This document shows, in pieces, positions 476 through 31,453 of a stretch of DNA of 39,827 nucleotides. Where the stretch lies: contig PMHO01000038.1 of NCBI GenBank assembly GCA_003156715.1, positions 21,891-61,717 of the forward strand, written 5' to 3'. Numbering within the stretch: position 1 is the stretch's first letter; every line of letters begins with the position of its first letter. The notes under the pieces were generated by a model. That model searched no databases. It saw only the letters and a list, made by a program, of their open reading frames with translations, and was not told the origin of the DNA. Position numbers and translations under genes: made by a program. The DNA comes from Vulcanimicrobiota bacterium. GTDB taxonomy: Bacteria > Vulcanimicrobiota > Vulcanimicrobiia > Vulcanimicrobiales > Vulcanimicrobiaceae.

Positions 476-628
476 CGCCGTATCCCCATAAGCTGCACCA
501 CGTCGACTTTCCGAGCATTTCCGGCAGCGTGCGAGCGACACCTTGACATCGGAATGGTCGTAAAGTACTTTGGTCTGACCAACACGCCGGCCGCGTCTGC
601 GCGCGCGGCCGTTGAGAGAGGCTGTGCA

Positions 629-1528: not shown

Positions 1529-2712
1529 GCGGCGCCGGGCCTTGCCGCATCTTCCTTGTAGCGCTGGGCGCCGACGGCGACGGAGCGGCCGCGCGACTGC
1601 AGACGGCCCTCGAGAAGGCGACGATCGATGCGACGTATCGTTCGGATTCTGCGGGCGCACGGGAGTCGGCTGCAGCGTTGGGCGGCGCACGGGACGTTCC
1701 GGTCCTGGTCGATCCGCGTCTGCGCGATCTGGACGCGACGCGTGGCGAATCGGTCGCCGGCGCTCTCGAACGCGCGTGGCCTGCCTTTTGCGAGCTGGCC
1801 CGCGCACACCAAGAAGGGACGGTTCTGGTCGTCAGCCACCCTGCGATCGTACAGGCCCTGCTGTGCTCCGTAACGGAGGCGGGCGAACCCAACTATCAGC
1901 GTTTTGCCGTAAGGCCGCTGGGTCTGACGATGGTGGAGGTCGGAACCGACGGGCGCGGCGTTTTGCGCGCGCTAAACGCGAACCTCGACCCGAATGCGAT
2001 CGCGCGAAAGGCACCGGCCACGCGCGTGCTAATGATCCGCCACGGGCACGCGATGAGCGTTGAAAAAGGCGCCCCGGCGTACAGCCACAACCCCATACCG
2101 CTGAGCCGGCTGGGAGAGGAACAGGCGATGCGGGTGGCAGCAGCCCTGAGCACCGTCCAGGTCGACGGCATTTTCAGCTCGGATATCGTGCGAGCGCGGC
2201 AGACGGCGGAATTCTGCGGACGCGCTCTTGGGCTGGAAGTCGTAACCGACCGTAGCCTGCGCGAGCTTGCGCTCGGCGAATTTGAAGGAATGACTCTCGA
2301 GCGCGTCCATGCCTCCCATCCGGCGTTCATCCCGTGGCTCGAGGTCGTCTTTCGAAACCGTTTCCCCTCGGCTGACTTCCATCACCCCGCCGACCTGCGC
2401 TTCCCGAACGGGCAAAGCGTGCTCGACGTCCATGACAGCTCGCTGGCGGGCGTTCTTCGCATCCTCGAGACCGAACGCGGACGAACGATCCTCCTCGTTT
2501 CGCACGGCTGGGTTCTGCAGCCGCTGATCTGTCACATCGTTGGCGCCGATCCGCAGGCATACTATCGCTTCACCCTTCCGACCGCTACCGTAGCGATGGC
2601 GGAGGTGGAAGCCGACGGTCGCGGCGTACTCGAAATCTTCAACGGGGGCGTCGCCCTCGAGGACCTGCCAAAGCTCACCGGCGCCGATGGGAGACTTGCC
2701 GATGTCCGCTGA
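1525..2712 (+). CDS. Tandem histidine-phosphatase (phosphoglycerate-mutase superfamily) protein. The N-terminal repeat is degenerate and the C-terminal repeat is catalytically intact.
   Basis: The second half has RVLMIRHGHAMS (the RHG motif), SSDIVRARQTAE and LLVSHGWVLQPLI. The first half starts CRIFLVALGADGDG, so it has no RHG, but it keeps LVVSHPAIVQALL. The start overlaps the upstream stop as ATGA at 1525-1528. Confidence 0.8.
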   Translation: MSGAGPCRIFLVALGADGDGAAARLQTALEKATIDATYRSDSAGARESAAALGGARDVPVLVDPRLRDLDATRGESVAGALERAWPAFCELARAHQEGTVLVVSHPAIVQALLCSVTEAGEPNYQRFAVRPLGLTMVEVGTDGRGVLRALNANLDPNAIARKAPATRVLMIRHGHAMSVEKGAPAYSHNPIPLSRLGEEQAMRVAAALSTVQVDGIFSSDIVRARQTAEFCGRALGLEVVTDRSLRELALGEFEGMTLERVHASHPAFIPWLEVVFRNRFPSADFHHPADLRFPNGQSVLDVHDSSLAGVLRILETERGRTILLVSHGWVLQPLICHIVGADPQAYYRFTLPTATVAMAEVEADGRGVLEIFNGGVALEDLPKLTGADGRLADVR

Positions 2713-3331
2713 CGTAAGCGACGAGAAGACCTACGCGGTTCTCACCGCCATCTTGCTCAAGAAAGTGAGCGACGCGAGCGCGCTGTCGGAGGCGACGGGA
2801 CTGCCACTCGACGATACCGGGCGCATCCTGGGCGAGCTCGAGAAGAGGCAAGCCGTTTTCTCCATGAACTCGAGCGTCATGGCGACCGAAAGCGGGACGG
2901 CGCTCGTCAAGGAGATTGCGGCACGCAACTACGGCGAACTGCGAGGCGACCCCGAACTCGAGCGCTGGCACGCGCGCTTCGAGCCGCTCAACCGGCAGTT
3001 CCTGAGCGCCGTCACCGCGTGGCAGACCGTCGATGTCGGTGGTACGAAACTGAGCAACGATCACAGCGACAGCGAATACGACGACAAGGTACGCTCGCGC
3101 CTCGATGGCCTCGTCAATAAGATGAGCCACCTGCTCGAGGAGATCGGCGCCAAGGTCCCACGCTTGCTGCGCTATCGCGACCGGCTAAACGGTGCGCTCG
3201 ACAAGAGCTATGCGGGCGACTCGCGATTCATCTCCGACGTGCGCGTCGATTCCTTGCACACCGTCTGGTTCGAGATGCACGAAGACGTTCTGCTGGTGCT
3301 GGGTAAGGAACGGACCGATGCCGGCGGCTGA
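2687..3331 (+). CDS. Hypothetical protein, about 210 aa; the start may instead be ATG 2702
   Basis: It overlaps the end of the phosphatase gene by 11-26 nt and the start of the PPDK-like gene by 14 nt, which suggests translational coupling. The N-terminus (TYAVLTAILLKKVSDASALSEATGLPLDDTGRILGELEKRQ) looks winged-helix-like, and I recognise no catalytic motif. Confidence 0.5.
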   Translation: MGDLPMSADVSDEKTYAVLTAILLKKVSDASALSEATGLPLDDTGRILGELEKRQAVFSMNSSVMATESGTALVKEIAARNYGELRGDPELERWHARFEPLNRQFLSAVTAWQTVDVGGTKLSNDHSDSEYDDKVRSRLDGLVNKMSHLLEEIGAKVPRLLRYRDRLNGALDKSYAGDSRFISDVRVDSLHTVWFEMHEDVLLVLGKERTDAGG

Positions 3332-5888
3332 CGCGCCGCCGGTCGCGCCGGACCAGCAGCAGCCGGCGCGCGTGCTGACCTTCGAAGCGGGAGACCACCA
3401 CAACGTCGACCTGCTCGGCGGAAAGGGCGCGGGGCTGGTGCGCATGACGGCGGCCGGTTTACCCGTGCCGCCGGGCTTCATCATCACGACCGAAGTTTGT
3501 CGCGAGCGACAACGTGAGGGCCGCTTGCCGTCCGATCTGCTCGACGAGATCGCTCGGTACATGCGGGTGCTCGAAGGACGAACCGGCCGAGGTTTCGGCC
3601 ATGGCCCGGCACCGCTGCTCGTTTCGGTCCGTTCGGGCGCGCCCGTCTCGATGCCAGGCATGATGGAAACGATCCTGAACCTCGGCCTCAACGCGCAAAC
3701 CGCCGAGGCGCTGGCGCGCGAGACGGGCGATCCGCTCTTTTCAGCGACCGTTTTCGTGCGCTTCATGCGCATGTACGGCGAGATCGTCCTCGGCGCAACC
3801 GGCGAGGCAGTCGATCGTGCGGCCGCGCCGCTGCTGGCGACGTTGCGTGACCGTCCCGATGCTGTCTCGATGCGGGCGCTTTCCGATGCCTGCCAGGCCG
3901 CGTTGCGCGAGGACTGCGGCGACGAGGTTCCCGCGGATGCCTTCGAGCAAGTCGCCGGGGCAATCGGCGCCGTTTTCGATTCGTGGAACTCGCGGCGCGC
4001 GATCACCTACCGTAATTTCCACGGGATCGCGCACGATCTCGGAACGGCGGTCGTGGTGCAGGCCATGGTGTTCGGCAATCTCGGTACGCCGTCCGGGACC
4101 GGCGTCGCGTTCTCGCGCGATCCGCTGAGCGGCGAACCGACCCTGTTCGGCGAGTTCCTCGAAGGCGGCCAAGGTGAAGACGTCGTGGCGGGAACGCTAA
4201 CGCCGCAGAAGATTGCGCAGGCCGCCGCGCGCTTTCCGGAACTGTTCGCCGAGTTCGAGGGCGTCGCGCGCCGCCTCGAAGAGCTGTACCGCGACGTCGT
4301 CGACATTGAATTCACCGTCGAGCGCGGGAAACTGTTCATCCTACAGGTGCGATCGGCGAAGCGCACGGCCCAGGCGGCACTGCGCATTGCGGCCGACTTC
4401 CTTACGGAAATGCGCTTGAGCGAGGCCGACGCGCTGCGCAGCGTTACGCTTGCGCAGGTGCGACAGGTCGGGCGGCCTGGTTTCGAACCCGCCGCGGTCG
4501 CGCGCGCAAAGTCCGAAGGAAGGCTGCTCGGCTCCGGCATCGGCGCGTCGCCTGGACAAGTGAGCGGCCGGGTCGCCCTCGATCCCGACCGGGCCGAAGC
4601 TGCAGCAAAAGGATCGAACGGGGCGGGCTCGATCATCTTAGTGCGCCCGACGACGAGCCCGCACGACCTTCACGGCATGATCGCGGCGCGAGGCATCCTG
4701 ACCTCACTGGGAGGCGCGACCAGTCACGCCGCCGTGGTCGCGCGCGCCCTCAACAAGGCGTGCGTCGTCGGCTGCGACCGTTTGACGATCGACGCGGAAA
4801 AGCGCCGTTTCCGCCTCGACCAAACATGGTTCGACGAGGGGGACGAAATCTCGATCGACGGCGCCACGGGCGAACTTTTTGCGGGCGCTCTCCCGGTCGT
4901 CCCGGGCGGCGCGTCGACGCCGCAGATCGAGGCATTGCTGGCCGTTGCCGATCGGCTCGCGCGCTGCCGCATCTTCGCCCGAGTCGCAACCACCGCTCAG
5001 ATCGCGACCGCGCTTGCGTGTGGCGCGACGGGCGTCGCGATCCGCTTGGGCGACGTCTTGACGACGTCCGGCAAGCTCGGCGAATTTATCGACGCGGCGC
5101 TGGCACAACGCGAGGGCAGTTCGGCCGTCGTCCAGATGGCGCAAACGCTCGCGGATTTGCTCGCGCCGCTGCTGGCCGCGTCCGGCCACGCCGACTTCGC
5201 GCTGCGCGCGGTCGATCTCGCTACCGGAGAGGCCACCGAACTCTTGCGAACGGTCGATCTGTTCGCACGCGAGCCGCGGCTGGCGCTGCCCCTGGGCGTA
5301 CCGGAGTTGATCGAGGTGCAGGTGCGGGCCATGGCGCTTGCGATCGAACGCGCGGGCTACGGCGGCAGCGCGCAGTTCATCGTACGGCATATCAACGATC
5401 CAAGCGAAATGCGCGAGCTGCGGCGCATCGCAAGCGCTGCCTCGGGGAGCGGGCGCGCCGCCATCGCGGCAGGCGCCACAATGACGAGCGTTCACGGCGC
5501 CCTGCTCGCATCCGAAATCGGCCGGCATGCCGACGTGCTCTGGCTCGAAGCGCGCAGCCTGATCGCCAACGCCCACGGTTACCCTTCCACGCTGATGCTG
5601 ACCGCCGATCCGCTCGACGACTACCTGCGCCGGGGCCTCTTGAGCGCGGACCCGCGCACGACCCTCGACGAATCGATGACGCGGCTTTTTCTCAGCGTGG
5701 CGGGCGCTGCCGTGAGCAACCCGGAATGTCGCATCGGCATCCGCCTTTCGGGGCAGCTTTCGGAGCAAATGGTGGCCACTCTCTTCCGCAGCGGTTTCCG
5801 TTCCTTCATCGTCGATCCGGACGAGGTTCGCGTTGCCCGCGTCGCGCTCGGACGCGAAGCCGCCGCGATGAACCCGGCGAACGGGTAA
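3318..5888 (+). CDS. Pyruvate,phosphate dikinase-like PEP-utilising enzyme. It has a canonical N-terminal ATP-grasp domain and phospho-His swivel domain, and a divergent C-terminal domain.
   Basis: Three PPDK hallmarks are present. LLGGKGAGLVRMTAAGLPVPPGFIITTEVC and PLLVSVRSGAPVSMPGMMETILNLGLN are PPDK_N hallmarks. GSIILVRPTTSPHDLHGMIAARGILTSLGGATSHAAVVARALNKACVVGC is the swivel domain with the catalytic His. The ~380-aa C-terminus lacks an obvious GTNDLTQ/Cys motif. The start is ATG 3318, and track residues 3192-3317 are not protein-like. Confidence 0.8.
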   Translation: MPAADAPPVAPDQQQPARVLTFEAGDHHNVDLLGGKGAGLVRMTAAGLPVPPGFIITTEVCRERQREGRLPSDLLDEIARYMRVLEGRTGRGFGHGPAPLLVSVRSGAPVSMPGMMETILNLGLNAQTAEALARETGDPLFSATVFVRFMRMYGEIVLGATGEAVDRAAAPLLATLRDRPDAVSMRALSDACQAALREDCGDEVPADAFEQVAGAIGAVFDSWNSRRAITYRNFHGIAHDLGTAVVVQAMVFGNLGTPSGTGVAFSRDPLSGEPTLFGEFLEGGQGEDVVAGTLTPQKIAQAAARFPELFAEFEGVARRLEELYRDVVDIEFTVERGKLFILQVRSAKRTAQAALRIAADFLTEMRLSEADALRSVTLAQVRQVGRPGFEPAAVARAKSEGRLLGSGIGASPGQVSGRVALDPDRAEAAAKGSNGAGSIILVRPTTSPHDLHGMIAARGILTSLGGATSHAAVVARALNKACVVGCDRLTIDAEKRRFRLDQTWFDEGDEISIDGATGELFAGALPVVPGGASTPQIEALLAVADRLARCRIFARVATTAQIATALACGATGVAIRLGDVLTTSGKLGEFIDAALAQREGSSAVVQMAQTLADLLAPLLAASGHADFALRAVDLATGEATELLRTVDLFAREPRLALPLGVPELIEVQVRAMALAIERAGYGGSAQFIVRHINDPSEMRELRRIASAASGSGRAAIAAGATMTSVHGALLASEIGRHADVLWLEARSLIANAHGYPSTLMLTADPLDDYLRRGLLSADPRTTLDESMTRLFLSVAGAAVSNPECRIGIRLSGQLSEQMVATLFRSGFRSFIVDPDEVRVARVALGREAAAMNPANG

Positions 5889-5894
5889 CGCGGC

Positions 5895-8177
5895 GTGCTC
5901 GTGCCGCAAGCGCTTCGTGCGCGTCCCAAACCCTCCCAGCCGGCCCGCATGTCGGCCGCCTCGATCGAACGCGCCTTGCGCAGGTTGGCGGTTGCGGCAG
6001 AGCGGGGCTACCATGTGTTGCTTAGCGAGGCGGAAGAAATATTTGCTGGACTGACCGGCTCGAAGCGCGCGCGCGTTTTTCTCTACGCCGGCGGCTGTTG
6101 GCGCGCGTGGGATTCGATTGAAAATGCGGCAGCAGACAACGCCGCGACGTGGCCGCAGTCCGAGCCGTCGACCTGGAACCGAATCGCCGAACTCAACGGC
6201 GACCAGTTCGTCCCGGTGCGCGCCGGGAGCCTTGCCGTGTTGCTCGAGGGGCCGCGCGGCGGTAAGGAGGGCGAGCACGTCGCGGGCATTGCCGCGGCTG
6301 CCTTCGACCTAGCGCTGACCGCTTGCCAGCGCCGTTCGCTCTCGAGCGACGAGAGCGACGAGATCGGCGTCATGCAGCGCCTGGCGATGCGCATTCTCAA
6401 GAGCCGCAACCTGCAAGAGATCCTGCTCCTGATCACGCACGAAACCAAGCAGCTGCTGGGGGCCGACATCTGCGGCATCATGCTGCGCGAAGGCGATGCG
6501 GTCGTGATGCAGCGCTGCGTCGGAAACTTTTCGGCCGATACGGCATCGCTGCGCATGCAGGCGGGTCAAGGCCTTGCCGGGCGCGTGTTCGAGACGAAGA
6601 AACCTTGTCACGTCGAGCACTACCTCGAGAGCAACCTGATCAGCAAAGACTTCATGCACCTGGCGCGCATCGAGATGGTGCGCTCGGCGCTCGGCGCACC
6701 GCTGCTCTCGCAGGACGACGCAATCGGCGTACTCGAGGTCTGGCGCCGCCAAATCTCGAAGTTCGACGAGCGCGACACGCGGCGGCTCGTCATGCTCGCG
6801 AACTTGACCTCGGTCGCGATCGAGAATGCCCGCCTCTCGCAAAGCCTCGAAAGCAACATGCTCGAGCTAGCCGCAGCCAACGCAGCGTTGATGGCGCGCT
6901 ACGAAGTGGTCCGCGCTTCGGCGGGCTTTCAACACGAACTGATCCGCTTGCTGCTCGAAGGCAAGAGCCTCGGCACCATCGCCGCCAAAGCGGCAGAGCA
7001 CGTCGATGCCGAGGTGCTGATCCTCGACGCGAACTTCGAGATCGAGGGTGCCTCGCCGGCGTGCGAGCGACTTTCCGACCGGCTGCGCGAACAGATCAAA
7101 GCGGCGCTGCGCAAGGCGCCTTCGAACGGTCCCGAGACGACCGCCGCAATGCTGGAAGGAAAGCCGGCGCTGCTCCAACCGGTCGTCGCCGCAACCGAGC
7201 GGCTCGGTGTGGTCGTCCTTCGACGGCAAACGCCGCTCGATCAAAACGCGCAGCTTGCGCTCAGCCAAATCTGCATCGTGACATCGCTGCACCTGATCGA
7301 GCGCCGCGCCGCCGCGCGCGCCCGGGCGGAGACGCTCGGTGCCGTCTTGTGGGACCTCTTGGAAGGGACCGATGACGTCCGGCGCTCGGCTGCGGCCCGC
7401 GCCCGCGACCTGCGCGTCGACCTCGAGGGAGGCCACCGCGTGTTCCTGTGCGCCCTCGACGGCATCGAACAGCAGGCCAATAGCGAGGGCTGGAGCCCGG
7501 GCGAAATCAGCGTACGGCGCAGACGCATCGCACAGACCTACCGCACGGTCGAAGACCTGGAAAAATCGGTGAAGCTCTCGGGCGCGCGCGCCAACTTCGT
7601 GGCGCTGGTTTGCGGGGGCGAGGCGGTTCGCGATGCGGAGCGTTTGGGAGCCAAGCTTGCGGCTGCCATCGCCGCGAACGTCACGGGACTCTCGGTCCAG
7701 GTCGGCATCAGCACGCCGTGTATCGGCCCGGCCTCTTTGAGCGCGGCGTATCGTGAAGCCAAAATATCGCTCGAGGTGGCCCGCCAGCGCGGCCGCGTCG
7801 CGGCGGCCTGTTACGAGGATGCAGGGATCGTCGGCATGCTGCTGAGCTTGCGCGCGGAGGCTGACGTCAAGAAAGTCGTGCACACGATCTTCGGGCCGCT
7901 GCTCGAGGAGAAAGCGCAGACCCGCGACCTGCTGTTCGGAACGCTCAAAGCCTTTTTCGAGCTAAACTGCTCGCGCCGAGCCGCCGCGAAAAAGCTTCGC
8001 GTCCACGAAAAGACGATCGTTTACCGGCTGGCGAAGATCGAATCGCTCACGGGTCTCGACTTCAGCAAGCACGAGAAGCGTCTCTTGGCGGACATCGCCT
8101 TGCAGATGTACGGCATGTCGGCGGAACGCGTCGCTTCAGGGCTTCCTTGGATCGATAACGACCTTCATCGCCCGTAA
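5895..8177 (+). CDS. Transcriptional regulator with a central GAF domain and a C-terminal PucR/CdaR-type HTH
   Basis: The C-terminus FGTLKAFFELNCSRRAAAKKLRVHEKTIVYRLAKIESLTG is a PucR-type HTH. The central region (MQRLAMRILKSRNLQEILLLITHETKQLLGADICGIMLREGDAVVM...) is GAF-like. Its 3' end overlaps the convergent ADH gene by 42 bp. Confidence 0.8.
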   Translation: MLVPQALRARPKPSQPARMSAASIERALRRLAVAAERGYHVLLSEAEEIFAGLTGSKRARVFLYAGGCWRAWDSIENAAADNAATWPQSEPSTWNRIAELNGDQFVPVRAGSLAVLLEGPRGGKEGEHVAGIAAAAFDLALTACQRRSLSSDESDEIGVMQRLAMRILKSRNLQEILLLITHETKQLLGADICGIMLREGDAVVMQRCVGNFSADTASLRMQAGQGLAGRVFETKKPCHVEHYLESNLISKDFMHLARIEMVRSALGAPLLSQDDAIGVLEVWRRQISKFDERDTRRLVMLANLTSVAIENARLSQSLESNMLELAAANAALMARYEVVRASAGFQHELIRLLLEGKSLGTIAAKAAEHVDAEVLILDANFEIEGASPACERLSDRLREQIKAALRKAPSNGPETTAAMLEGKPALLQPVVAATERLGVVVLRRQTPLDQNAQLALSQICIVTSLHLIERRAAARARAETLGAVLWDLLEGTDDVRRSAAARARDLRVDLEGGHRVFLCALDGIEQQANSEGWSPGEISVRRRRIAQTYRTVEDLEKSVKLSGARANFVALVCGGEAVRDAERLGAKLAAAIAANVTGLSVQVGISTPCIGPASLSAAYREAKISLEVARQRGRVAAACYEDAGIVGMLLSLRAEADVKKVVHTIFGPLLEEKAQTRDLLFGTLKAFFELNCSRRAAAKKLRVHEKTIVYRLAKIESLTGLDFSKHEKRLLADIALQMYGMSAERVASGLPWIDNDLHRP

Positions 8178-9182
8178 CGCCGCAAGCTCGGCGTATGCGC
8201 CCGGTGCTCCCTCAAACGACACCCGCGCGCCGACCACATCGCTCGGATCGAGCGCGCGGGTCCCCAAGAGCGCGAGCAAGGTGCGGCGCACGCGGATCGC
8301 GTCGCCGATTGCAAACGAGAACGAGATCTCGTCCGCGAAGCATTTCGCGAGCGGCAGCTCCCAGCGCTCGGCTGCGTGTGCGCCGACTGAAACGATCCGG
8401 CCGCGACGCCGGACGAGCTGCAACGCGCTCGTAAGCGCCGCATCGCGTCCGACCGCTTCGACGACCACGTCGGCACCGTCGCCGTCGGTCAGCTCTCGAA
8501 TTAGGCGCTCGGCATCCTCCGGCGCCGCGGCAAGCGCACCGTGCGCTTCTGCGAAGCGGCGCCGCTCTGCGCTCGGTTCGACCACGACGACAATGCCGGC
8601 GCCGGCCGCCTGGGCGCACATGCTGGCGAGCTGACCGACCGCGCCGCCGCCGATGACGGCCAACACTTCGCCCGGCGCAAGCCCGCTGCGCTCGATCGCA
8701 ACCCAGCCGGTCGGCAAATTATCGGCCAGCAGAATGGCGCTTTCATCCGAGCAGGCCGCGGGAACGCGCATGAGCGCGACGTCCGCAAACGGCACGCGGA
8801 CGAGCTCCGCTTGAGCGCCTGACAGCGGCGGACCGAAGGCTGCGCCCGTACCAAAAAAAGCGCGTTGCGCGCACTCCCAATGATCGCCGCGGTCGCACCA
8901 ACGGCATGCTCCGCAGGCGACGAAATCCGAGGCGAAGACGCGCTCGCCCGGCCTCACGTGCTGCACCGCCGAGCCGACTTCGACGACGCTGCCGACGAAT
9001 TCGTGTCCCAGCACGAGGCCCGGCTCGACACCGGGAAAGTCGCCGCCGATCAGATGCAGGTCCGTTCCGCAAATACCGCACAGGCTCGGGCGCACGAGCG
9101 CGTCGGTTGGGTCGACCAACGCCGGCTCGCGCACATCGTCGAGCCGAACCGAGCGCGAACCAGCGAAGACCACCGCGCGCAT
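8136..9182 (-). CDS. Zn-dependent alcohol dehydrogenase (MDR superfamily)
   Basis: It has the catalytic-Zn motif SLCGICGTDLHLIGGDF...GHEFVGSVVEVG, the structural-Zn Cys cluster CGACRWCDRGDHWEC, and the GxGxxG motif VIGGGAVGQL. It is the last gene of the - strand BMC operon, starting 2 nt after the MDH stop. Confidence 0.85.
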   Translation of the reverse strand: MRAVVFAGSRSVRLDDVREPALVDPTDALVRPSLCGICGTDLHLIGGDFPGVEPGLVLGHEFVGSVVEVGSAVQHVRPGERVFASDFVACGACRWCDRGDHWECAQRAFFGTGAAFGPPLSGAQAELVRVPFADVALMRVPAACSDESAILLADNLPTGWVAIERSGLAPGEVLAVIGGGAVGQLASMCAQAAGAGIVVVVEPSAERRRFAEAHGALAAAPEDAERLIRELTDGDGADVVVEAVGRDAALTSALQLVRRRGRIVSVGAHAAERWELPLAKCFADEISFSFAIGDAIRVRRTLLALLGTRALDPSDVVGARVSFEGAPGAYAELAALRAMKVVIDPRKP

Positions 9183-9184
9183 GC

Positions 9185-10576
9185 TTAGCGCGGCATGGCC
9201 TTGATGCGCTCGTCGATCGCCTTGGCGGACGCTGCCAGCTCCGCACGCTCGGCGGGGCGCAGGGCGAGGTCGACGATCCGGCGGACGCCCGTACGGCCGA
9301 GCAGCACCGGAAGACCAACGCGCGTGTCGATTAACCCATAGGCGCCGCGCGAGCGAACGCAGGCTGGGATCACTTCGTCGGAGTCGTCGACGATCGCCTG
9401 TACTTGTTTGGAAATCGCCGAGCCCGGCGAGAAAAACGCGCTGCCGCTTTGCAGCAGTTTCGTAACCTCGGCACCGGACTCGCGCGTGCGACGGACGATG
9501 CCGTCGAGCGTCGCGCTATCGAGCAGTTGCTCGAGCGGAACGTTGTTCGCCGTCGCTTGACTCAGTGGAATCACCATTTCCGCGCCGTGGCTTCCCAGGA
9601 CGAGCGCGCGAACGTCCTGAGCGCGAACGGCACCGGTAAGTCCGACCAGGGCGCGGAAGCGCGCGGTGTCGAGCACGCCGCCCATCCCGACGACGCGCTC
9701 GGGCGGAAAAGCCGTCAGCTCGCAAACGAGCTGCGTCATCTCTTCGAGGGGATTCGTGACGACAACGACGACCGCGTTCGGAGCAAGCTCTTTGATCGAG
9801 GGCGCAATCGAGCGTACGATCTCGGAGTTGGCCGCCGTCAAGTCGGTGCGCGACATGCCGGGCTTGCGCGGCCGCCCCGCCGTTATCACGATCACATCCG
9901 AACCCGCCACGTCGGCCATGCGGTGACTGCCTTCAACGCGCGTATCGAAGCCGCGCAGCCCGGCGCTGTGCCACATGTCGAGCGCGAGACCTTCGGCCAG
10001 CCCCTCGACGACGTCGATCAGCCGCACGCGCGCGAACCGGTCCGCTAAGGCGAGCGCGAAACCGGCACTCGCGCCAACGTGACCGGCACCGACGACCGTC
10101 ACCTGCGGGCGCGCAAGCGCCGCATCCGTCTGCCCGGCGCGCACGTTGCGCTCGCCCGCAGAGCCATATGCGCTGCGACGGTAGAGGGCACCCGAGCGCG
10201 GCAAGGCCGCGCTGCCGCTCGGGGCGGCGGCCTGCGCGACGCGTGGAAGTCCCGGGCCGACGCGCGCCGGGCCTGCCGGAGTCGTGCGCGCAGGTTGTTG
10301 CAGCACGCCGCGCTGCGCAGGCTGCGAAACGGGTCGCTGTACGAGCGCCGGGCTGACGTACGACGTCATGGTGCGTTGCGGCGGACCGCTCGCGCCGTCG
10401 CGTTCGATCGTGATGCCGAGCTCTTTCGCGCGGTCGAGCGCGAGCGGCGTCACCACGTCGAGCGGGCCGATGCGCAAGCTCCCCGAGGCCTGCTCCACGT
10501 CGCGAAGCGTGAAGACGCTTCTCGGCGTTTCCTCCTTTGACGACGCGCGACCGTTCGGAACGCCGGCCCCCTTCAC
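9185..10576 (-). CDS. mdh: LDH-like malate dehydrogenase carrying a ~150-aa N-terminal extension (a small folded motif followed by a Pro/Ala/Gln-rich linker)
   Basis: The C-terminal ~310 aa match LDH/MDH: VTVVGAGHVGASAGFALAL, DVIVITAGRPRKPGMSRTDL and VLGSHGAEMVIP. The Arg in the GRPRKPG specificity position points to malate rather than lactate. The N-terminus (MKGAGVPNGRASSKEETPRSVFTLRDVEQASGSLRIGPLDVVTPLALDRAKELGITIERDG, then a low-complexity PAQ-rich stretch) is absent from ordinary MDHs. The start overlaps the BMC-T stop by 4 nt. Confidence 0.85.
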   Translation of the reverse strand: MKGAGVPNGRASSKEETPRSVFTLRDVEQASGSLRIGPLDVVTPLALDRAKELGITIERDGASGPPQRTMTSYVSPALVQRPVSQPAQRGVLQQPARTTPAGPARVGPGLPRVAQAAAPSGSAALPRSGALYRRSAYGSAGERNVRAGQTDAALARPQVTVVGAGHVGASAGFALALADRFARVRLIDVVEGLAEGLALDMWHSAGLRGFDTRVEGSHRMADVAGSDVIVITAGRPRKPGMSRTDLTAANSEIVRSIAPSIKELAPNAVVVVVTNPLEEMTQLVCELTAFPPERVVGMGGVLDTARFRALVGLTGAVRAQDVRALVLGSHGAEMVIPLSQATANNVPLEQLLDSATLDGIVRRTRESGAEVTKLLQSGSAFFSPGSAISKQVQAIVDDSDEVIPACVRSRGAYGLIDTRVGLPVLLGRTGVRRIVDLALRPAERAELAASAKAIDERIKAMPR

Positions 10577-11193
10577 TCGCGTCCCTCGAGAGCGGCCAGG
10601 GCGGCGACGGCGGCGTCGCGCGCGGTCCGCACGTCGCTCTCGCTTCCGGAAACGAACAGCCGGCCGAAGCGGCCGACGGCGCGCACCTCGATCAGGCTGA
10701 TCTCGGCCGTTTTCTCCGCCTCGTTGGCTGCCAGCGTGACGTAGGCCGCGGGCGAAACCTCGAGAACGAACAAGCTGCTGCGCGGCAAGAGCAGATTTCC
10801 CTTGCGCCAGCGATTGATCAGCTGCGCTTGATACGGGTTCACGTTGGTCACGAATTGCGAGGACGCCACTTTCGGCTTGAGGCGATCGGCTTCGCCGATC
10901 CCGAGGTACTCGAGCACCGCTTGCCCGGCGGCGATGACTTCGGCTTGCGTTCGCGAGTGCACCTCGAGCAACCCGAATTCGCGCTCGACGATCTGAAGGG
11001 CGGGGCGAACGTCGGCCGCTTTGAGGGCCACGTCCGCGCAGCGGAAGATTTCGTTACCCGGGGCAACCTCGATGAACAACTCCGACATTCCGGCCACCGG
11101 GACGTCGCCTTGGCAAGTGGCCGCAACGTGTGCCGCCGCTTGCGGCTGCATGCGATCGATGAACGCGTACGTGCGCAACTCGACGCCGGCCAT
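10573..11193 (-). CDS. BMC-T shell protein (tandem, permuted BMC domains; EutL/PduB-like)
   Basis: From the internal ATG 11193 there are two BMC-like repeats: ...MSELFIEVAPGNEIFRCADVALKAADVRPALQIVEREFGLLEVHS and ...SLFVLEVSPAAYVTLAANEAEKTAEISLIEVRAVGRFGRLFVSG. There is a GAGGGG RBS about 11 nt upstream. The track ORF 10573..11454 over-extends by 87 codons. Confidence 0.72.
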   Translation of the reverse strand: MAGVELRTYAFIDRMQPQAAAHVAATCQGDVPVAGMSELFIEVAPGNEIFRCADVALKAADVRPALQIVEREFGLLEVHSRTQAEVIAAGQAVLEYLGIGEADRLKPKVASSQFVTNVNPYQAQLINRWRKGNLLLPRSSLFVLEVSPAAYVTLAANEAEKTAEISLIEVRAVGRFGRLFVSGSESDVRTARDAAVAALAALEGRE

Positions 11194-11230
11194 CAGTTCG
11201 CCGCCCCTCGGCACGCTTCGTCGCCGCGTT

Positions 11231-12631
11231 TCACTTGAGATCGTACAGCGAGCGCCACGGCCGGATCTCGTGTGCGATGCGCTTGATGTTGATGAGATGC
11301 AGCGGCGTAACGTTGTCGGAGACGATCGATCCGCTCCAGGTTCCGGTGCCCAGCATGAACGACGGATCCGTGGCAGCGCTGAAGCCCATTCCGCCGAACA
11401 AGCTCGGCGTATTGCAAAGAATGCGTGCGGCCGGGAGGGACGCGAACTTGGCAATCACCGCGTCGTCGCCCGCGTGGAGGCCGAGCGTGTGGCCGGCGCC
11501 GCCGAAATCGAGAACCTGCCGGCAGCGTTCGTAAGCGGCGTCCGCGTTCTTGGCGCGATAGAACGACAGAACCGGGCCGAGAATCTCACGCGACAACGGG
11601 GTTTGCGGCCCGACGTCGTGCAGCTCGGCGGCGAGCACGCGGCAATTCGCTTCGACGCGCGCCCCGATCCGGTCCGCCAGAACGCGCGCCGATTGTCCGA
11701 CCGACTGCGGCCGCAGATCGCCGCCCTCGGTAAAGAGAAGCGACGCCAAGCGCTGCGCCTCCTCCGCACCAAGAAAGACGGTGCCCTGCGCTTCGAAAGC
11801 CGTAAAGGCGGCGTCGGCGATAGGCTCGTCGAGGACGACCGATTGTTCGGCGACGCAGGCCGTTCCGTTGTCGAAGGCTTTCGAAGTGACGATCATCGTC
11901 GCCGCTTCGAGCAGGTCCGGGACGGAGCGATCGATGTATGCCGGCACGTTGCCGGGCCCGACTGCCAGCGTCGGTTTACCAGAAGAATAGGCAGCGCGCA
12001 CCATGCCGGCGCCGCCGGTTGCCAGGACCATCGAGACGGCCGGATGGCGCATCAACTCCTGCGTCGACTCGAGCGTAACGCTCTCCAGACACGAGATCAG
12101 GCCGCGCGGCGCCCCAGCCCGCTCGGCCGCGCGGGCCATGATCTCGGCCGTGCGCGCGCAACAGCGCACCGCGCGCGGATGCGGCGCGCAAACGATGGCA
12201 TTCCCCGACTTGACCGCCGCCAGGCATTTGAACAGGACGGTCGAGGTTGGATTGGTGACGGGGATGATGGCGGCCAAAACGCCCATCGGTGAGCCGACGG
12301 CCGCCATCCGGTTCGGCTCGTCGACCCACAGAACACCGAGCGTGCGCATCTCCAGCATCGCTTGGGCCACGAAGCGCGCGTTGTAAAGATTCTTGTAGAC
12401 CTTGTCGGCGACGACGCCGTAGCCGGTCTCCTCGACGGTGAGCCGGGCGAGTTCTTCGGCCGCGGCCGCCCCGGCGTTTGCCATTGCGCTCACGATGCGG
12501 TCGACCACCGCTTGCGTGGCGCCGTCGAACGACTCGAAGGCGGCCCGTGCGTCGCGCGCTTTCGCGCGCGCTTCAGCGAGCGCGATCAGGTCGGAATCGG
12601 CTTCGAGCGCAGCCATCGCGCCCCCAGGCAC
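11231..12631 (-). CDS. CoA-acylating aldehyde dehydrogenase (PduP/EutE family)
   Basis: The ALDH fold is clear. VGPGNVPAYIDRS and TSKAFDNGTACVAEQSVV match the PduP/EutE catalytic-Cys motif, and the C-terminus (...VTPLHLINIKRIAH) is EutE-like. A GTG start at 12631 sits 9 nt downstream of a GGAGGA RBS. No long N- or C-terminal extension is evident. Confidence 0.9.
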   Translation of the reverse strand: MPGGAMAALEADSDLIALAEARAKARDARAAFESFDGATQAVVDRIVSAMANAGAAAAEELARLTVEETGYGVVADKVYKNLYNARFVAQAMLEMRTLGVLWVDEPNRMAAVGSPMGVLAAIIPVTNPTSTVLFKCLAAVKSGNAIVCAPHPRAVRCCARTAEIMARAAERAGAPRGLISCLESVTLESTQELMRHPAVSMVLATGGAGMVRAAYSSGKPTLAVGPGNVPAYIDRSVPDLLEAATMIVTSKAFDNGTACVAEQSVVLDEPIADAAFTAFEAQGTVFLGAEEAQRLASLLFTEGGDLRPQSVGQSARVLADRIGARVEANCRVLAAELHDVGPQTPLSREILGPVLSFYRAKNADAAYERCRQVLDFGGAGHTLGLHAGDDAVIAKFASLPAARILCNTPSLFGGMGFSAATDPSFMLGTGTWSGSIVSDNVTPLHLINIKRIAHEIRPWRSLYDLK

Positions 12632-12661
12632 GATCGATTATCCTCCGGGATCCCGCGGTCG

Positions 12662-12964
12662 CTACTTGAGCTTGCCGAGAATCAGGTCCACGTCTTCGTG
12701 GGGCCGTGGGATCACATGCACCGAGATCACCTCGCCGACCTTGCCGGCCGCAGCCGCGCCGGCATCGGTCGCGGCCTTGACCGCCCCGACGTCGCCGCGG
12801 ACCATGACGGTGACGAGGCCACCCCCGATTTGCTCTCGGCCCATCAGCCGGACGTTGGCTGCTTTGACCATCGAATCGGCCGCCTCGATCGCTGCGACGA
12901 GGCCCTTTGTTTCGATGAGACCGAGCGCGCCGCCCGGGGACTCCGAGCTACCTGGTGCTGCCAT
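12662..12964 (-). CDS. BMC-H shell protein (single BMC domain; PduA/EutM/CcmK-like)
   Basis: [77 protein letters not shown] is a canonical BMC domain. An AAAGGGGGG RBS lies upstream. Confidence 0.9.
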
Positions 12965-12988
12965 GACACTGACCCCCCTTTTGCTTTA

Positions 12989-13294
12989 CTACTTGACGAA
13001 CGTGGTGCGCGAATCGAGCCGGGCACTGTCGACGATGGCGACGATGGCGGCATCGGTCGGAACGCGCGCCGTGCCCTCGTCGACGCGCGCGGCGCCGCCG
13101 TGCGCGACCAAAACGATCTCGCCCTCGCCGACGCCGACCAGGTCGATGGCGGCATACACCGCGGCGCTTGCATCGCCGTCGCCGCCAAGCGGATCGCGCG
13201 GATCGACCTCTCGAACCAACAAAAGTTTGTAGCTCGACAGACCGTCGGCTTTGACCGTGGCGACGACGTTTCCGCACACCCGCCCTAGGCGCAT
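12989..13294 (-). CDS. BMC-P vertex protein (EutN/CcmL/PduN family)
   Basis: From the internal ATG 13294 the sequence runs MRLGRVCGNVVATVKADGLSSYKLLLVREVDP...AAIDLVGVGEGEIVLVAHGGAAR...AAIVAIVDS. An AAAGGG RBS lies upstream, and it is the first gene of the - strand operon. The track ORF 12989..13429 over-extends by 45 codons. Confidence 0.85.
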   Translation of the reverse strand: MRLGRVCGNVVATVKADGLSSYKLLLVREVDPRDPLGGDGDASAAVYAAIDLVGVGEGEIVLVAHGGAARVDEGTARVPTDAAIVAIVDSARLDSRTTFVK

Positions 13295-13470: not shown

Positions 13471-14493
13471 TTGATCCAAGATGCGGATGCGGACTTTCAC
13501 GGGCGCGATTCGAGCGACCCCACCTGGTCCGAAACGAACTACTTCGCCTTCTACGAGCCGCAGTCGCGTTTAAACGTCGGTCTGTACGCGCTTTTCCGGA
13601 CGACCCTGGGAACGGTCGGCTCGACGATCTGCATCAATTCCGGCCGGTCTTTGACGCCGTGGGAAGCCGATTTCTGCGACATGCGCTCCTCGCTGCCGAT
13701 TCCGAAGCCCTACGACCTGCGCGCTTACAAGCTCGCCAACTCGCTCGCGGTCCGTACGATCGAGCCCAACCGCGTCTGGGATCTGCGCTACGATGACGGC
13801 GAAGGTACGCGGGTCGACGTGCGCTGGGAGGCGCTGATGCCGGGCTTCGACATCCACGATCCGGCCGAAGATCCGATGGCGGCGGCGGCGAGTCACGCGC
13901 AGGCCGAGGGCAAGTTCGCCTGGGGAACCGCCTACAACGGCCATTTCGATCAAACGGGGCGCGCCCACGGTACGGTCGCCGTTCGCGGCAAGGCGTATGA
14001 AATCGACTGCGTTTCCACCATGGACCACAGTTGGGGTCCGCGCCCCGAGCGCGGCGCCCCGCCGATGTGTTGGCTCGGCGCCCATTTTTCAAAAGATTTC
14101 GCGATGCATGCCATCTTCAGCTTCGATCCGGCCCAGAACCCGACGGGGCTACGCTTGACGCACGGTTACGTCCTCGAGCGGGGGAAGGTTTTCGGTCTTA
14201 AAGCGGGGAGTGGCCGCACGGTGCGCGGGAGCGACCGTTACGCCGAGACCATCGAGCTCACCGTAACCGACCGGGCCGAACGCACGTGGAACTTCTCCGG
14301 CGCCGGCTTGACGACGTTTCCCTGGCTATGCTGGCCGAATATGGTCGGCTTCAACGTCCTGACGCGTTGGGAGTGCAACGGCTTGACGGGCTACGGCGAG
14401 ATCTACGACTTCTACGAGCTGCCGCTGCTCGCGTCGCTCAACGGCTCGCCCGCGACCCGCATCGCATCGAGGCCGGCCTCCGTGAACGCCTGA
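13471..14493 (+). CDS. Hypothetical protein (340 aa), Trp-rich and probably a beta-rich fold; function unknown
   Basis: A TTG start is preceded by a strong GAGGAGG RBS 6 nt upstream. It is transcribed divergently from the BMC shell operon across a 176-bp intergenic region. I recognise no family motif with confidence; any resemblance to AttH/CrtC-type lipocalin hydratases is vague. Confidence 0.55.
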   Translation: MIQDADADFHGRDSSDPTWSETNYFAFYEPQSRLNVGLYALFRTTLGTVGSTICINSGRSLTPWEADFCDMRSSLPIPKPYDLRAYKLANSLAVRTIEPNRVWDLRYDDGEGTRVDVRWEALMPGFDIHDPAEDPMAAAASHAQAEGKFAWGTAYNGHFDQTGRAHGTVAVRGKAYEIDCVSTMDHSWGPRPERGAPPMCWLGAHFSKDFAMHAIFSFDPAQNPTGLRLTHGYVLERGKVFGLKAGSGRTVRGSDRYAETIELTVTDRAERTWNFSGAGLTTFPWLCWPNMVGFNVLTRWECNGLTGYGEIYDFYELPLLASLNGSPATRIASRPASVNA

Positions 14494-14497
14494 GCCG

Positions 14498-15487
14498 ATG
14501 CCGCCGCGCGCGATCCTCTTCGACTTCGACGGCACCCTCGTTCAAACGCGCGAGGCTTCCTGGGAGCTGTTCGCTCAAACCAATCGCGAGTTTGGCCTGG
14601 GCATCGAGGATCGCGACGCTTTTTTCGATCTCTTTAACGACAACTTTTTCCGGGCTCTCGCCGCCCGTTGCCCCGACAAGACGAAGCTCGATGCGGCCAA
14701 GCACCACTTTCTCGAGCTCCTTCGCACGCAGTACACGCCGCCGCTGGTACCGGGCCTGGCCGACGTGGTGCGAACCCTGGCGAGCCGCTGCACGCTCGTC
14801 GTCCTCTCCACCAACACGATCGCAACGATTCGACGCGTGCTGAGCGAAGCCGGCGTGGCGACGTGTTTCGCGCACGTCTTCTCGGGCGACGTGGAACCCG
14901 ACAAGAGCGTCAGCATGCGGCGCTTCCTCGCCGACGCAGGTTACGGCGTCGGACGGCGCTGCTCGCCTGCGTACGACGAGCTCAACGGCGCGCGCGACGA
15001 AGGCGGCGTAGCACTGATTACCGACACGGCAGGCGACGTGAAGGAGGCGTTGGCTTGCGGCGTTCGCGCCATCGGCGTCGCGTGGGGCATGCACGGCGAA
15101 TCCGAGCTGCTTGCAGCCGGCGCCGAAACGGTGGCGGTTTGGCCGCAAGAGCTCATCGCTTGGCTTGCGTCGGGCGAGCCCGCGCCTGGTGCGACGGCCT
15201 GTTTGCTTCCTCCCAAGGGCGCCTGCGCATGCGAGGGCGCTACCTCGACACCGTGCGCTTGTCCGCACGAACCGGCCGCTACGGCAGCCGAGCGCGTTGC
15301 CGCCGCCGCGCGCGTGCGCCGCGCGCGCAACTCCGAGCGCTTGGAGGAGGCTCGCCGCACCCGGTTTTGGGATCGCAGCGAATCCGTGCTTCGCTCGGAG
15401 CCGCCGCCGGCCGTGCCGCGCGCGCCACCGCCGTCAGAACCCGAACTGCTGGCGACGCTGCGGCGTCTGCGTCACATCCAGGTTTGA
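14498..15487 (+). CDS. HAD-superfamily phosphatase (phosphoglycolate-phosphatase-like) with a ~100-aa C-terminal tail
   Basis: The N-terminus ILFDFDGTLV is HAD motif I, and later motifs are VVLSTN and GDV...D. The tail has a Cys cluster (CLLPPKGACACEGATSTPCACPHEP), an Ala/Arg-rich segment, a Pro-rich segment (EPPPAVPRAPPPSEPE) and ends LLATLRRLRHIQV. It starts 4 nt after the upstream stop. Confidence 0.8.
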   Translation: MPPRAILFDFDGTLVQTREASWELFAQTNREFGLGIEDRDAFFDLFNDNFFRALAARCPDKTKLDAAKHHFLELLRTQYTPPLVPGLADVVRTLASRCTLVVLSTNTIATIRRVLSEAGVATCFAHVFSGDVEPDKSVSMRRFLADAGYGVGRRCSPAYDELNGARDEGGVALITDTAGDVKEALACGVRAIGVAWGMHGESELLAAGAETVAVWPQELIAWLASGEPAPGATACLLPPKGACACEGATSTPCACPHEPAATAAERVAAAARVRRARNSERLEEARRTRFWDRSESVLRSEPPPAVPRAPPPSEPELLATLRRLRHIQV

Positions 15488-15518
15488 ACGTGCATCTTCG
15501 CTGAGGAGGACAGAAGCA

Positions 15519-15935
15519 ATGACAGTTTTAGCCGAAGGTTACAACGCCTTCGAAACACCCAAATCGCCGACCGGCGTCGTCAAGTACCTCGGTGACCCGA
15601 CTGCGGTTATCGCGCTGATCTCGAGCGGCAAACTGCAAGACCACATCATCCTGGCGCAGGGCGGAACGACGACCTTCCTGTCCCCGGCGCTCACCATGGG
15701 ATGCCTCGGCGTCATCACGCTCTCGGGTGCGCCCGAGTCCCATCTCGGCATCCTGTCGCGCGAGTTTCAAATCCCGTGCATCATGACCGCCTATCAGCCG
15801 AACACCGAAACCCGCTACGTCACGGGCGGCAACAACGACGAGCACTTCAAGCAAATGATTGCAGCTCTCGACGGGAAGAAAGTCCGTCTCAAGTGCGACC
15901 ATCACGACGTCGCGCAGGTACTCCTCGAAGACTGA
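15519..15935 (+). CDS. Stand-alone PEP-utilising-enzyme mobile (phospho-histidine swivel) domain protein, 138 aa
   Basis: ATG 15519 follows a GAGGAGGA RBS. The sequence LQDHIILAQGGTTTFLSPALTMGCLGVITLSGAPESHLGILSREFQIPCIM resembles the GG.TSHAAI.ARE.GIP swivel motif, with a candidate catalytic His in ESHLG. Confidence 0.7.
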   Translation: MTVLAEGYNAFETPKSPTGVVKYLGDPTAVIALISSGKLQDHIILAQGGTTTFLSPALTMGCLGVITLSGAPESHLGILSREFQIPCIMTAYQPNTETRYVTGGNNDEHFKQMIAALDGKKVRLKCDHHDVAQVLLED

Positions 15936-15986
15936 CCCTCGTAACTTCACGTCTTACGCAGCGCTCAAGACAAGAGAGGAAACGCG

Positions 15987-17408: not shown

Positions 17409-17477
17409 CGCCGTTTGGCCGGCATCGGGGTTACGTACGGTAGCGTGCGTAGCCCCAATGCGGCCGGCGAGAGCGCG

Positions 17478-17774
17478 ATGATTGAGACGTTTGGGGTTGA
17501 GGCTCTGGGGCTGGTCGAGACCTTCGGCCTGGCAGCGGCCGTGGAGGCGGCCGATGCGATGGTGAAGACCGCGAGCGTCCGCGTCATTACCAAGCAGCAG
17601 CCAGGCGGCGGGCTCATCGCCATCATGGTGACCGGGGAAACGAGCGCCGTGCAGTCCGCGGTCGATGCCGGCGTCGCAGCGGCCGAGCGCGTCGGCCGCG
17701 TCGTCAGCCGGCGCGTCATCGCCAGACCTGACGCAGACATTCTCGACCTGCTCGAGCGGCCGCCGGTGCGTTGA
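17478..17774 (+). CDS. BMC-H shell protein, second copy (satellite)
   Basis: From the internal ATG 17478 the sequence runs MIETFGVEALGLVETFGLAAAVEAADAMVKTASVRVITKQQPGGGLIAIMVTGETSAVQSAVDAGVAAAERVGRVVSRRVIARP, a canonical BMC domain. Confidence 0.85.
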   Translation: MIETFGVEALGLVETFGLAAAVEAADAMVKTASVRVITKQQPGGGLIAIMVTGETSAVQSAVDAGVAAAERVGRVVSRRVIARPDADILDLLERPPVR

Positions 17775-17830
17775 GCGGCACCCCCGCGCAAAGGCGCGGG
17801 AGCTGCCGGGGTAGGCAAGAAGGTAGCCGC

Positions 17831-24026: not shown

Positions 24027-24138
24027 GCAATCCTCTTCGAACCCTGGTGAGGTAGTCCGTGATTCATCAGGACAACCGCTTTTACGACCGTGCCGGTTTC
24101 CGAAATCGTGGATCGCATCGTTGTTTCAGCAGGCTTTC

Positions 24139-27513: not shown

Positions 27514-27534
27514 CGGTGGCCTTCTTACGAGCGG

Positions 27535-31446: not shown

Positions 31447-31453
31447 GCGTCCG

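Follow-up and report, generated by a model that had tools for sequence, protein, structure and literature searches.

A stretch of 39,827 nucleotides from contig PMHO01000038.1 of a Vulcanimicrobiota bacterium (hereafter the window) carries, next to a bacterial microcompartment (BMC) locus, a gene encoding a protein of the pyruvate, phosphate dikinase (PPDK) type. Its ATP-charging half is intact and its C-terminal barrel has lost four of six catalytic residues for pyruvate and phosphoenolpyruvate (PEP). With moderate confidence, we consider the protein to be a partner-dependent, ATP-utilising phosphoryl donor of a multi-component small-molecule dikinase that does not act on pyruvate; pyruvate or PEP as its substrate is very unlikely. 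The gene belongs to a conserved module, which is probably the missing signature chemistry of microcompartments of the MIC1 type.

The start of the PPDK-like gene, which has a third-position GC content (GC3) of 0.80, is backed by an independent gene call on a metagenome contig of 100% identity (L011). Judged from the sequence, the ATP-grasp and swivel phospho-histidine domains are textbook PPDK, as the original prediction had stated. Both were detected by Pfam (PF01326, PF00391), and a phmmer search against the PDB aligned residues 19–575 to residues 4–558 of Clostridium symbiosum PPDK (45% identity, E 1.5e-128), the significant alignment breaking off at residue 575. In a residue-by-residue alignment to 1kbl, Lys22, Arg92, Glu323, Gln335, and Arg337 of PPDK were all matched in the ATP-grasp domain, where Lys36, Arg105, Glu331, Gln343, and Arg345 are conserved. 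Lys36, Arg105, Arg345, and His470 of the swivel domain are invariant among 18 family members, and so are Thr468 and Ser469 beside the catalytic histidine. Since the PPDK-type ATP-grasp and swivel domains are complete, autophosphorylation of His470 from ATP would be expected.

The third domain gave a different picture. The PPDK equivalog model TIGR01828 reached 597 bits on the whole protein, approximately 250 bits below its cutoff of 843.45, and a Pfam scan, in which PPDK_N and the PEP-utilizers mobile domain were detected, left PF02896 (PEP-utilizers_C) below threshold. The model for Enzyme I of the phosphotransferase system (PTS), TIGR01417, scored 18 bits (cutoff 342), and the NCBIfam models of the RPH family were far under their cutoffs. 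All public copies of the protein are nevertheless named pyruvate, phosphate dikinase, because the short PPDK-like model NF004531 (PRK05878) is passed (528.9 bits, cutoff 456, model positions 6–500), although its 534 positions span the ATP-grasp and swivel domains only and are blind to the third. As an equivalog model, NF004531 will therefore pass the PPDK name on even where the pyruvate domain is not functional.

The catalytic residues of PPDK were placed on the window protein and its family via profile alignment. Two of the six are present in the window protein: the equivalent of Arg561, an arginine kept in the clade of this protein only, and that of Arg617, Arg630, which is invariant family-wide and is the sole universally kept member of the set. 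Glu745, Asn768, Asp769, and Cys831 are replaced throughout the family, in the case of Glu745 by serine, of Asn768 by arginine, of Asp769 by serine or variable residues, and of Cys831 by an arginine (Arg809 in the window protein). Hence, both Mg2+ ligands and the acid/base cysteine are lost. At the motif level, FGTNDLTQ has become LEARSLIA, GICGEH (Cys831) has become GIRLSG, and MIEIP (Glu745) has become MTSV. A clean match to all PPDK catalytic residues is thereby excluded, and the claimed absence of the GTNDLTQ-type loop and of the catalytic cysteine is borne out. The claimed length of approximately 380 aa for this region was too long, as approximately 280 aa (576–856) are unmatched and the barrel comprises approximately 320. 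Mutagenesis of C. symbiosum PPDK reportedly showed that its pyruvate partial reaction depends on each of Glu745, Asp769, Asn768, and Cys831. An ordinary divergent PPDK, which would interconvert pyruvate and PEP and might deliver or use up C3 acids for the neighbouring malate/lactate dehydrogenase-like enzyme, would agree with the uniform public annotation, with the passed NF004531 cutoff, and with the presence of a lactate/malate dehydrogenase (LDH/MDH) family gene in the locus. We regard it as highly improbable, because that model is limited to the first two domains, the TIGR01828 cutoff is missed, PF02896 is undetected, and these four residues are all replaced.

By profile comparison and structural model, the C-terminal domain genuinely descends from the PEP/pyruvate TIM barrel (PEP-utilizers_C) and is not a new domain. 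The C-termini of 25 diverse family members (A1) were aligned and compared by hhalign with those of three canonical PPDKs from plasmid records; the probability was 99.1% (E 6e-18), colinear over 322 columns, and the first barrel strand is still alignable to PPDK. An exhaustive HMMER search with the A1 profile listed the family first (39 clusters at E <= 1e-30) and graded without a break into PPDK-type proteins at E 1e-15 to 1e-26, in which PF02896 was confirmed by Pfam; the search extends to canonical PPDK and Enzyme I. The AlphaFold (AF2) model of residues 530–856 is confident (pLDDT 91.7, pTM 0.90). Its best Foldseek matches in the PDB are the PPDK structures 1vbg, 1dik, and 1kbl (TM 0.81), followed by the barrels of PEP synthase and Enzyme I. 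On these three comparisons, the idea that the C-terminus is foreign to PPDK was rejected.

Conservation is distributed unevenly over the protein. Among the 18 family members, 82 of 378 columns are invariant in the ATP-grasp domain (mean identity 54%), 28 of 135 in the swivel domain (56%), and 8 of 316 in the barrel (36%), that is, 110 of 513 columns (approximately 21%) in the first two domains together versus 2.5% in the barrel. The control, three canonical PPDKs spanning Actinomycetota and Alphaproteobacteria, displayed no drop in the barrel (58%, 58%, and 59%, in the same order). Compared with the other domains and with the control, the constraint on the barrel is therefore clearly relaxed. 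Within Actinomycetota, the barrel looks re-tooled, with several arginines invariant in A1. However, the pocket motifs of these members changed once the module members of Methylocella and Pseudomonas and a copy on a Methylibium plasmid were added to the family alignment (VRH to IGG or LSG; LTSPR to VQNVA; GVRLSG to GVDCGA), and Methylocella and Pseudomonas, whose copies belong to the same module, do not retain the arginines at the Asn768 and Cys831 positions. An arginine-rich new active site as a family-wide feature was ruled out by this alignment; an arginine-rich ligand site specific to the actinobacterial clade is possible from the sequences. The barrel thus appears to persist as a relic with a structural part in dimerisation or docking, perhaps keeping some phosphate binding, and to hold no conserved new active site. 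The earlier view of a paralogue with another substrate is upheld insofar as the protein is not an ordinary PPDK; that its divergent domain was re-tooled for a new substrate is not supported, given its homology to the PEP-utilizers_C barrel, the relaxed constraint, and the unretained arginines.

The same data bear on a self-contained dikinase, in which the remodelled barrel would be the active site for a new acceptor. The acceptor could be a 2-oxo or hydroxy acid, but also a phosphorylated compound or a ketone without a carboxylate, such as acetone; the neighbouring Ldh_2, HIBADH-like, and histidine-phosphatase genes would provide for processing of the product. The barrel has been kept and is predicted to fold confidently, Arg630 is invariant, and the arginines replacing Asn768 and Cys831 in actinobacteria, together with the Arg561 equivalent in the clade of the window protein, could make up an arginine-rich, metal-free pocket. 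The set of PPDK-like, HIBADH-like, and histidine-phosphatase genes (plus Ldh_2) recurs in the window, in L006 and L018, and on the Methylibium plasmid, whose copy has no mini-swivel or ~470-aa gene (see below) nearby. We nevertheless consider this alternative doubtful, because the putative pocket residues vary even among members of the six-gene module (VRH to IGG/LSG; GVRLSG to GVDCGA), the barrel has far fewer invariant columns than the other domains, and the partner proteins are conserved far more than the barrel. Enol-phosphate chemistry on acetone, which was also considered, conflicts with the lost acid/base cysteine.

Gene neighbourhoods were taken from annotated plasmid hits and from contig look-ups for 11 family members, with a tblastn table as a summary, and comprised 12 distinct loci. 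In 11 of these, the PPDK-like gene sits in a module whose full form encodes a DUF7064 protein, a HAD hydrolase, a 138-aa swivel-histidine protein (mini-swivel), a ~470-aa protein, a ~206-aa protein, and the PPDK-like protein. The hosts are Rhodococcus oxybenzonivorans (pRB98), Pseudonocardia, Subtercola, a Dormibacteraeota metagenome-assembled genome, Pseudomonas sp. NFACC02, and Methylocella silvestris BL2, whose module is located at about 3.777–3.791 Mb of CP001280; further metagenome contigs carry the module as well. In the commonest order, the mini-swivel gene and the ~470-aa gene are followed directly by the ~206-aa gene and the PPDK-like gene. The DUF7064/65 and HAD genes lie directly upstream of these four in L014, Methylocella, and Pseudomonas and adjoin BMC genes elsewhere; the HAD gene was not seen on the Dormibacteraeota contig. 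In the window, the module is split: the DUF7064, HAD, mini-swivel, and 473-aa genes are located at 13471–17408, and the genes for the ~209-aa and the PPDK-like protein at 2702–5888.

In 11 of the 12 loci, the gene directly preceding the PPDK-like gene encodes a protein of approximately 190–220 aa without a Pfam match, and the stop codon of the first mostly overlaps or abuts the start codon of the second. The window protein of ~209 aa carries a conserved C-terminal motif (DSxHxxWFEFHEDLLxxLGRxR, alignment A3) and had no significant Pfam, NCBIfam, or PDB match. The overlap behind the translational coupling noticed earlier was confirmed; the accompanying label 'wHTH-like' drew little from the searches (Pfam E 0.023; MarR-type PDB matches E ~0.2). 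Matches of the ~209-aa profile to 5k7v and 6vfh are to designed helical repeats and were treated as compositional. On the Methylibium plasmid, a HIT-family gene takes the place of the ~206-aa gene. The mini-swivel, whose histidine motif GAPESH aligns with that of PEP synthase (PEPS) and Enzyme I, is 60–68% identical in all module loci and 137–142 aa long, with one copy called at 179 aa. The ~470-aa protein is 75–85% identical across phyla. Sequence searches with the 473-aa window protein yielded no significant match in PDB, Pfam, or NCBIfam, and its model has no structural relative in the PDB. The HAD hydrolase belongs to an enzyme class not listed as MIC1 cargo. In BMC-linked loci, it has a C-terminal extension of 85–110 aa with short amphipathic end helices (e.g., PELLATLRRLRHIQV, ELLEAVRLLVGRG), which in the window is of low complexity and ends in an amphipathic, encapsulation-peptide-like helix (PELLATLRRLRHIQV). 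The extension is found only in BMC-linked homologues; those of Methylocella and Pseudomonas, which are not accompanied by a BMC, lack it. From its sequence and distribution, the tail is likely an encapsulation peptide. A phosphonatase role for the HAD protein was ruled out by its weak PhnX-like score (31 bits versus 219).

In the mechanism that we propose, the PPDK-like protein would charge its own His470 from ATP, and the phosphoryl group would travel in trans, probably via the 138-aa swivel-histidine protein, to a substrate bound to the ~470-aa novel-fold protein; the ~206-aa protein would be indispensable to the transfer. The barrel would be kept as a structural element through which the protein dimerises or docks, and it might offer a platform for phosphate binding. 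The gene context suggests that the acceptor chemistry is provided by the mini-swivel and the 473-aa protein, encoded approximately 10 kb downstream and not tied to the gene in the original prediction. The DUF7064 protein and the HAD hydrolase would then process the resulting phosphate ester. Because of the encapsulation-peptide-like HAD tail, dephosphorylation would occur inside the MIC1 compartment in BMC-bearing actinobacteria. The product alcohol would feed the zinc-dependent alcohol dehydrogenase (Zn-ADH) and the acylating aldehyde dehydrogenase (AldDH), with the LDH/MDH-like enzyme recycling NADH.

Several points weigh against this assignment. The barrel is well conserved within Actinomycetota (mean column identity 55% in A1) and its fold is predicted confidently; arginines are invariant there at the Asn768 and Cys831 positions, so an anionic ligand may bind in that clade. 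In the window, the partner genes are approximately 10 kb off, across the BMC core from the PPDK-like gene, and do not form one operon with it. Since the Methylibium member has no partners nearby, at least one subclade may work alone. The PPDK-like protein has a swivel domain of its own, so that a second, free-standing swivel-histidine protein is not obviously needed, and we know of no precedent for His-to-His transfer between two PEP-utilizer swivel domains. Finally, the substrate proposed below is drawn from the gene neighbourhood.

A regulatory phosphotransfer resembling that of EI-Ntr (PtsP) was weighed as well: instead of a metabolite, the mini-swivel or the GAF-PucR regulator would receive the ATP-derived phosphoryl group of His~P, and the expression or activity of the BMC pathway would be controlled in this way. 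The regulator encoded downstream of the PPDK-like gene, whose domains were confirmed by Pfam as the original prediction had them, adjoins the module in most loci (window/L011, L001, L009, L013, L014, L015, and L017), the catalytic residues of the barrel are lost, and a small histidine-domain protein could serve as phosphocarrier. On the other hand, the genes stand in operon-like order among catabolic genes (HAD, DUF7064, dehydrogenases), the ~470-aa partner displays an enzyme-like, extreme conservation with many invariant Cys, His, and Asp residues, phosphatases recur in the loci, and Pfam detected no receiver or PRD-type domain on the regulator. A signalling role is thus quite improbable.

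The partner-dependent donor differs from the known swivelling-domain enzymes in distinct ways. PPDK (EC 2.7.9.1; C. symbiosum 1KBL/1DIK, maize 1VBG) has the same three-domain order and size, shares 45% identity over the ATP-grasp and swivel domains including the nucleotide-site residues and the catalytic histidine, and has a homologous C-terminal fold, but in the window protein the pyruvate/PEP site is dismantled and the constraint on the barrel relaxed. Moreover, the window family is not encoded with central-metabolism genes but in catabolic or BMC loci, where a free swivel and two uncharacterised proteins accompany it in the module. The mycobacterial short 'PpdK' proteins (NF004531/PRK05878), which include M. 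tuberculosis Rv1127c, consist of the ATP-grasp and swivel domains only, whereas the window protein passes the same cutoff and yet has a barrel of ~320 aa. In PTS Enzyme I and EI-Ntr, the swivel histidine is followed by a PEP-utilizers_C barrel that is the dimerisation domain, and a separate small protein receives the phosphoryl group; however, Enzyme I takes its phosphoryl group from PEP at an intact barrel and lacks an ATP-grasp domain, whereas the window protein has lost the barrel site and is evidently charged by ATP. No rifampin-binding-domain homologue is joined to the swivel domain as in the rifampin-phosphotransferase lineage, and the ~470-aa presumed substrate-binding partner has no structural likeness to the rifampin-binding domain. 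A precedent is offered by HpeHI of Rhodococcus, CreHI of Corynebacterium, and PpsAB(C) of Thauera, in which an ATP-grasp component phosphorylates a swivel histidine on another polypeptide and, in the Hpe pathway, the phosphate is removed at a later stage (PMC12167813). The window module would resemble these systems in having ATP-grasp and swivel-histidine functions on separate polypeptides together with accessory small subunits, and in a catabolic role of the kind known from them, phosphorylating first and dephosphorylating later (PMC12167813). Unlike them, the window ATP-grasp protein is of the PPDK type and keeps its own swivel and a dead barrel; the separate swivel protein encoded near the PPDK-like gene in the module loci would be phosphorylated in trans.

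The adjacency to a BMC locus was confirmed in the window, where the locus corresponds to the MIC1 definition (Sutter 2021, Supplementary Data 2); the window ORFs scanned included none of the PTAC type. The module lies beside BMC genes in eight distinct loci (window, L001, L009, L010, L013, L014, L017, and L019). Seven of them encode BMC-P, BMC-H, BMC-Tdp, the acylating AldDH, and an LDH-like MDH with an N-terminal extension of 110–155 aa, whereas the short Dormibacteraeota contig L019 has BMC-H genes only. The Zn-ADH gene follows the MDH-like gene wherever the contig reaches that far, and a EutJ-like gene is present in five of the eight loci, not including the window. The MDH-like extension, approximately 155 aa in the window, contains VVTPLAxxRAxELGV/I, which is kept in BMC-linked homologues and precedes a linker rich in Pro and Ala; the extension may serve in targeting or in binding to the shell. 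MIC1 (Axen 2014; Sutter 2021) was catalogued in 2021 with 45 loci, of unknown function and without a signature enzyme, and the catalogue text and supplements (Sutter 2021) make no mention of PF01326, PF00391, or a dikinase. A literature search found nothing relevant joining BMCs with PPDK or a dikinase, nor on tert-butyl alcohol together with a dikinase or in the Methylocella propane/acetone work. The links of MIC1 to the dikinase module and to the tail on the HAD hydrolase are new here.

Hints on the substrate come from the other neighbours. The Rieske oxygenase of the window and the one that occupies the mdpJ position on the plasmid of Methylibium petroleiphilum PM1 share 62% identity over 456 aa; the plasmid gene was identified by its place beside a PDR/VanB-type reductase at the Mpe_B0554 position and from Table 7 of PMC4517660. 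MdpJ is a tertiary-alcohol enzyme, acting as tert-butyl alcohol hydroxylase and tert-amyl alcohol desaturase (PMC4517660). No MdpK-type reductase was seen beside the Rieske oxygenase in the window. The PM1 plasmid copy of the PPDK-like gene lies beside mdpJK, between Ldh_2/HIT and HIBADH-like/histidine-phosphatase genes, and mini-swivel and ~470-aa genes were not found within 12 kb of it. In Pseudomonas and Methylocella, the modules are present without a BMC and are flanked by genes for ADH, AldDH, an acyl-CoA ligase, and proteins of the methylcrotonyl-CoA carboxylase, hydratase, and 3-hydroxy-3-methylglutaryl-CoA (HMG-CoA) lyase types. The enzymes converting methylbutenol to prenol were uncharacterised as of 2016 (PMC4791888). 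From the oxygenase, the flanking catabolic genes, and this gap, our guess is that the substrate could be a tertiary or allylic alcohol such as 2-methyl-3-buten-2-ol, whose phosphorylation would allow a 1,3-transposition to prenyl phosphate and prenol. Such a substrate would explain both the MdpJ-type oxygenase in the window and the methylcrotonyl-CoA carboxylase and HMG-CoA lyase genes near the Pseudomonas and Methylocella modules. That the six genes form the MIC1 signature system for attacking otherwise unoxidisable tertiary or allylic alcohols, by a phosphoryl relay, an allylic rearrangement, release by the HAD hydrolase inside the compartment, and conversion of the enal to acyl-CoA, is an unlikely proposal; it would be a new way of using such compounds. 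If true, it would identify the methylbutenol-to-prenol 'isomerase' of fuel-oxygenate and hemiterpene degraders.

Hundreds of proteins of Actinomycetota, Dormibacterota, and Proteobacteria have been named pyruvate, phosphate dikinase by the two-domain model, and metabolic reconstructions built on such calls will be wrong. The family would represent a natural case of a swivelling-domain enzyme in which the charging half was kept, the acceptor domain decayed, and new partners took over. For MIC1, the module gives a testable entry to the substrate and the aldehyde-generating step, with defined proteins, a histidine residue, and a candidate cargo tail. The ~470-aa partner, with its novel predicted fold and its high identity across phyla, merits structural and biochemical study. 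The features of the window are compiled in Table 1.

Table 1. Features of the window (positions in nucleotides; empty cells, no entry)
Feature	Position	Strand	Details
HIBADH-like NAD(P) oxidoreductase	554-1528	+	co-transcribed upstream
Tandem histidine-phosphatase protein	1525-2712	+	co-transcribed upstream
~209-aa protein	2702..3331	+	no Pfam; stop (3329-3331) overlaps PPDK-like start by 14 nt
PPDK-like dikinase gene	3318..5888	+	856 aa; ATG 3318, stop 5886-5888
ATP-grasp nucleotide-binding domain	3369..4502	+	aa 18-395; PF01326 1.3e-46, alignment to 1kbl
Swivel phospho-histidine domain	4503..4907	+	aa 396-530; PF00391 6.3e-21; motif GGATSH470AAVVARA
Remodelled PEP-utilizers_C TIM barrel	4908..5885	+	aa 531-856; hhalign, HMM search, AF2, Foldseek
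GAF / GGDEF-like / PucR-HTH regulator	5949..8177	+	directly downstream of PPDK-like gene
MIC1-type BMC core	8136..13294	-	six genes
Zn-ADH	8136-9182	-	BMC core
LDH-like MDH	9185-10576	-	BMC core; 155-aa N-terminal extension
N-terminal extension of MDH-like protein	10110-10576	-	
BMC-Tdp	10573-11193	-	BMC core
Acylating AldDH	11231-12616	-	BMC core; 497 bits to EutE-type model
BMC-H	12662-12964	-	BMC core
BMC-P	12989-13294	-	BMC core
DUF7064/DUF7065 (Rv3169-like) protein	13471..14493	+	first module gene; found in all module loci
HAD-family hydrolase	14498..15487	+	~100-aa C-terminal extension (15200-15487)
Stand-alone swivel (PEP-utilizers mobile) protein	15519..15935	+	138 aa; PF00391 3.8e-07; putative phospho-His75 (GAPESH)
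473-aa protein	15987..17408	+	novel predicted fold; many invariant Cys/His/Asp
Second BMC-H shell protein	17415..17774	+	PF00936 7e-25
GntR/FCD regulator	17771-18730		before Rieske oxygenase
Rieske oxygenase	18788..20185	+	
Carboxylesterase	20664-22298		after Rieske oxygenase
GH130-like ORF	28984-30030		

On the Methylibium plasmid, the direct neighbour of the PPDK-like gene encodes a protein with 55% identity to the HIBADH-like protein of the window, and the histidine-phosphatase of the window is 30% identical to its counterpart there. The window phosphatase (395 aa) matches the 210-aa Methylibium homologue twice, with residues 14–117 and 165–356, which suggests a tandem duplication whose N-terminal copy has degenerated. 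His_Phos_1 genes, whose products are longer still (462–492 aa), also flank the relatives in L006 and L018. These two loci (L006, 1–22568; L018, 1–22541) contain the closest relatives of the window protein in a divergent module, whose large protein of 417–418 aa is 29% identical to the 473-aa protein. Both include extra small ORFs and genes for DUF455 (diiron), a Rieske ferredoxin, a ferredoxin, an APH-type kinase, and B12-dependent acyl-CoA mutases with MeaB and an AMP-binding ligase (2-hydroxyisobutyrate-type genes). A thiamine pyrophosphate (TPP) enzyme of the latter group and a 95-aa PPDK_N fragment ORF (9082–9369) are present in L018 only and in L018, respectively, and a NuoF-like gene is present in L006.

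In the BMC-free modules (L016, 1363–3315, Pseudomonas sp. NFACC02; L015, Methylocella silvestris BL2), the lyase-like genes are HMG-CoA/citramalyl-CoA-lyase-like. A sigma-54 activator with a MimR_N domain is encoded near the Pseudomonas module; MimR is the regulator of acetone/propane monooxygenase. The section of the window from 23136 to 32326 encodes two ABC transporter sets of the branched-chain amino acid type (binding proteins, permeases, and ATPases) and contains, besides the GH130-like ORF, an NmrA/epimerase-like gene.

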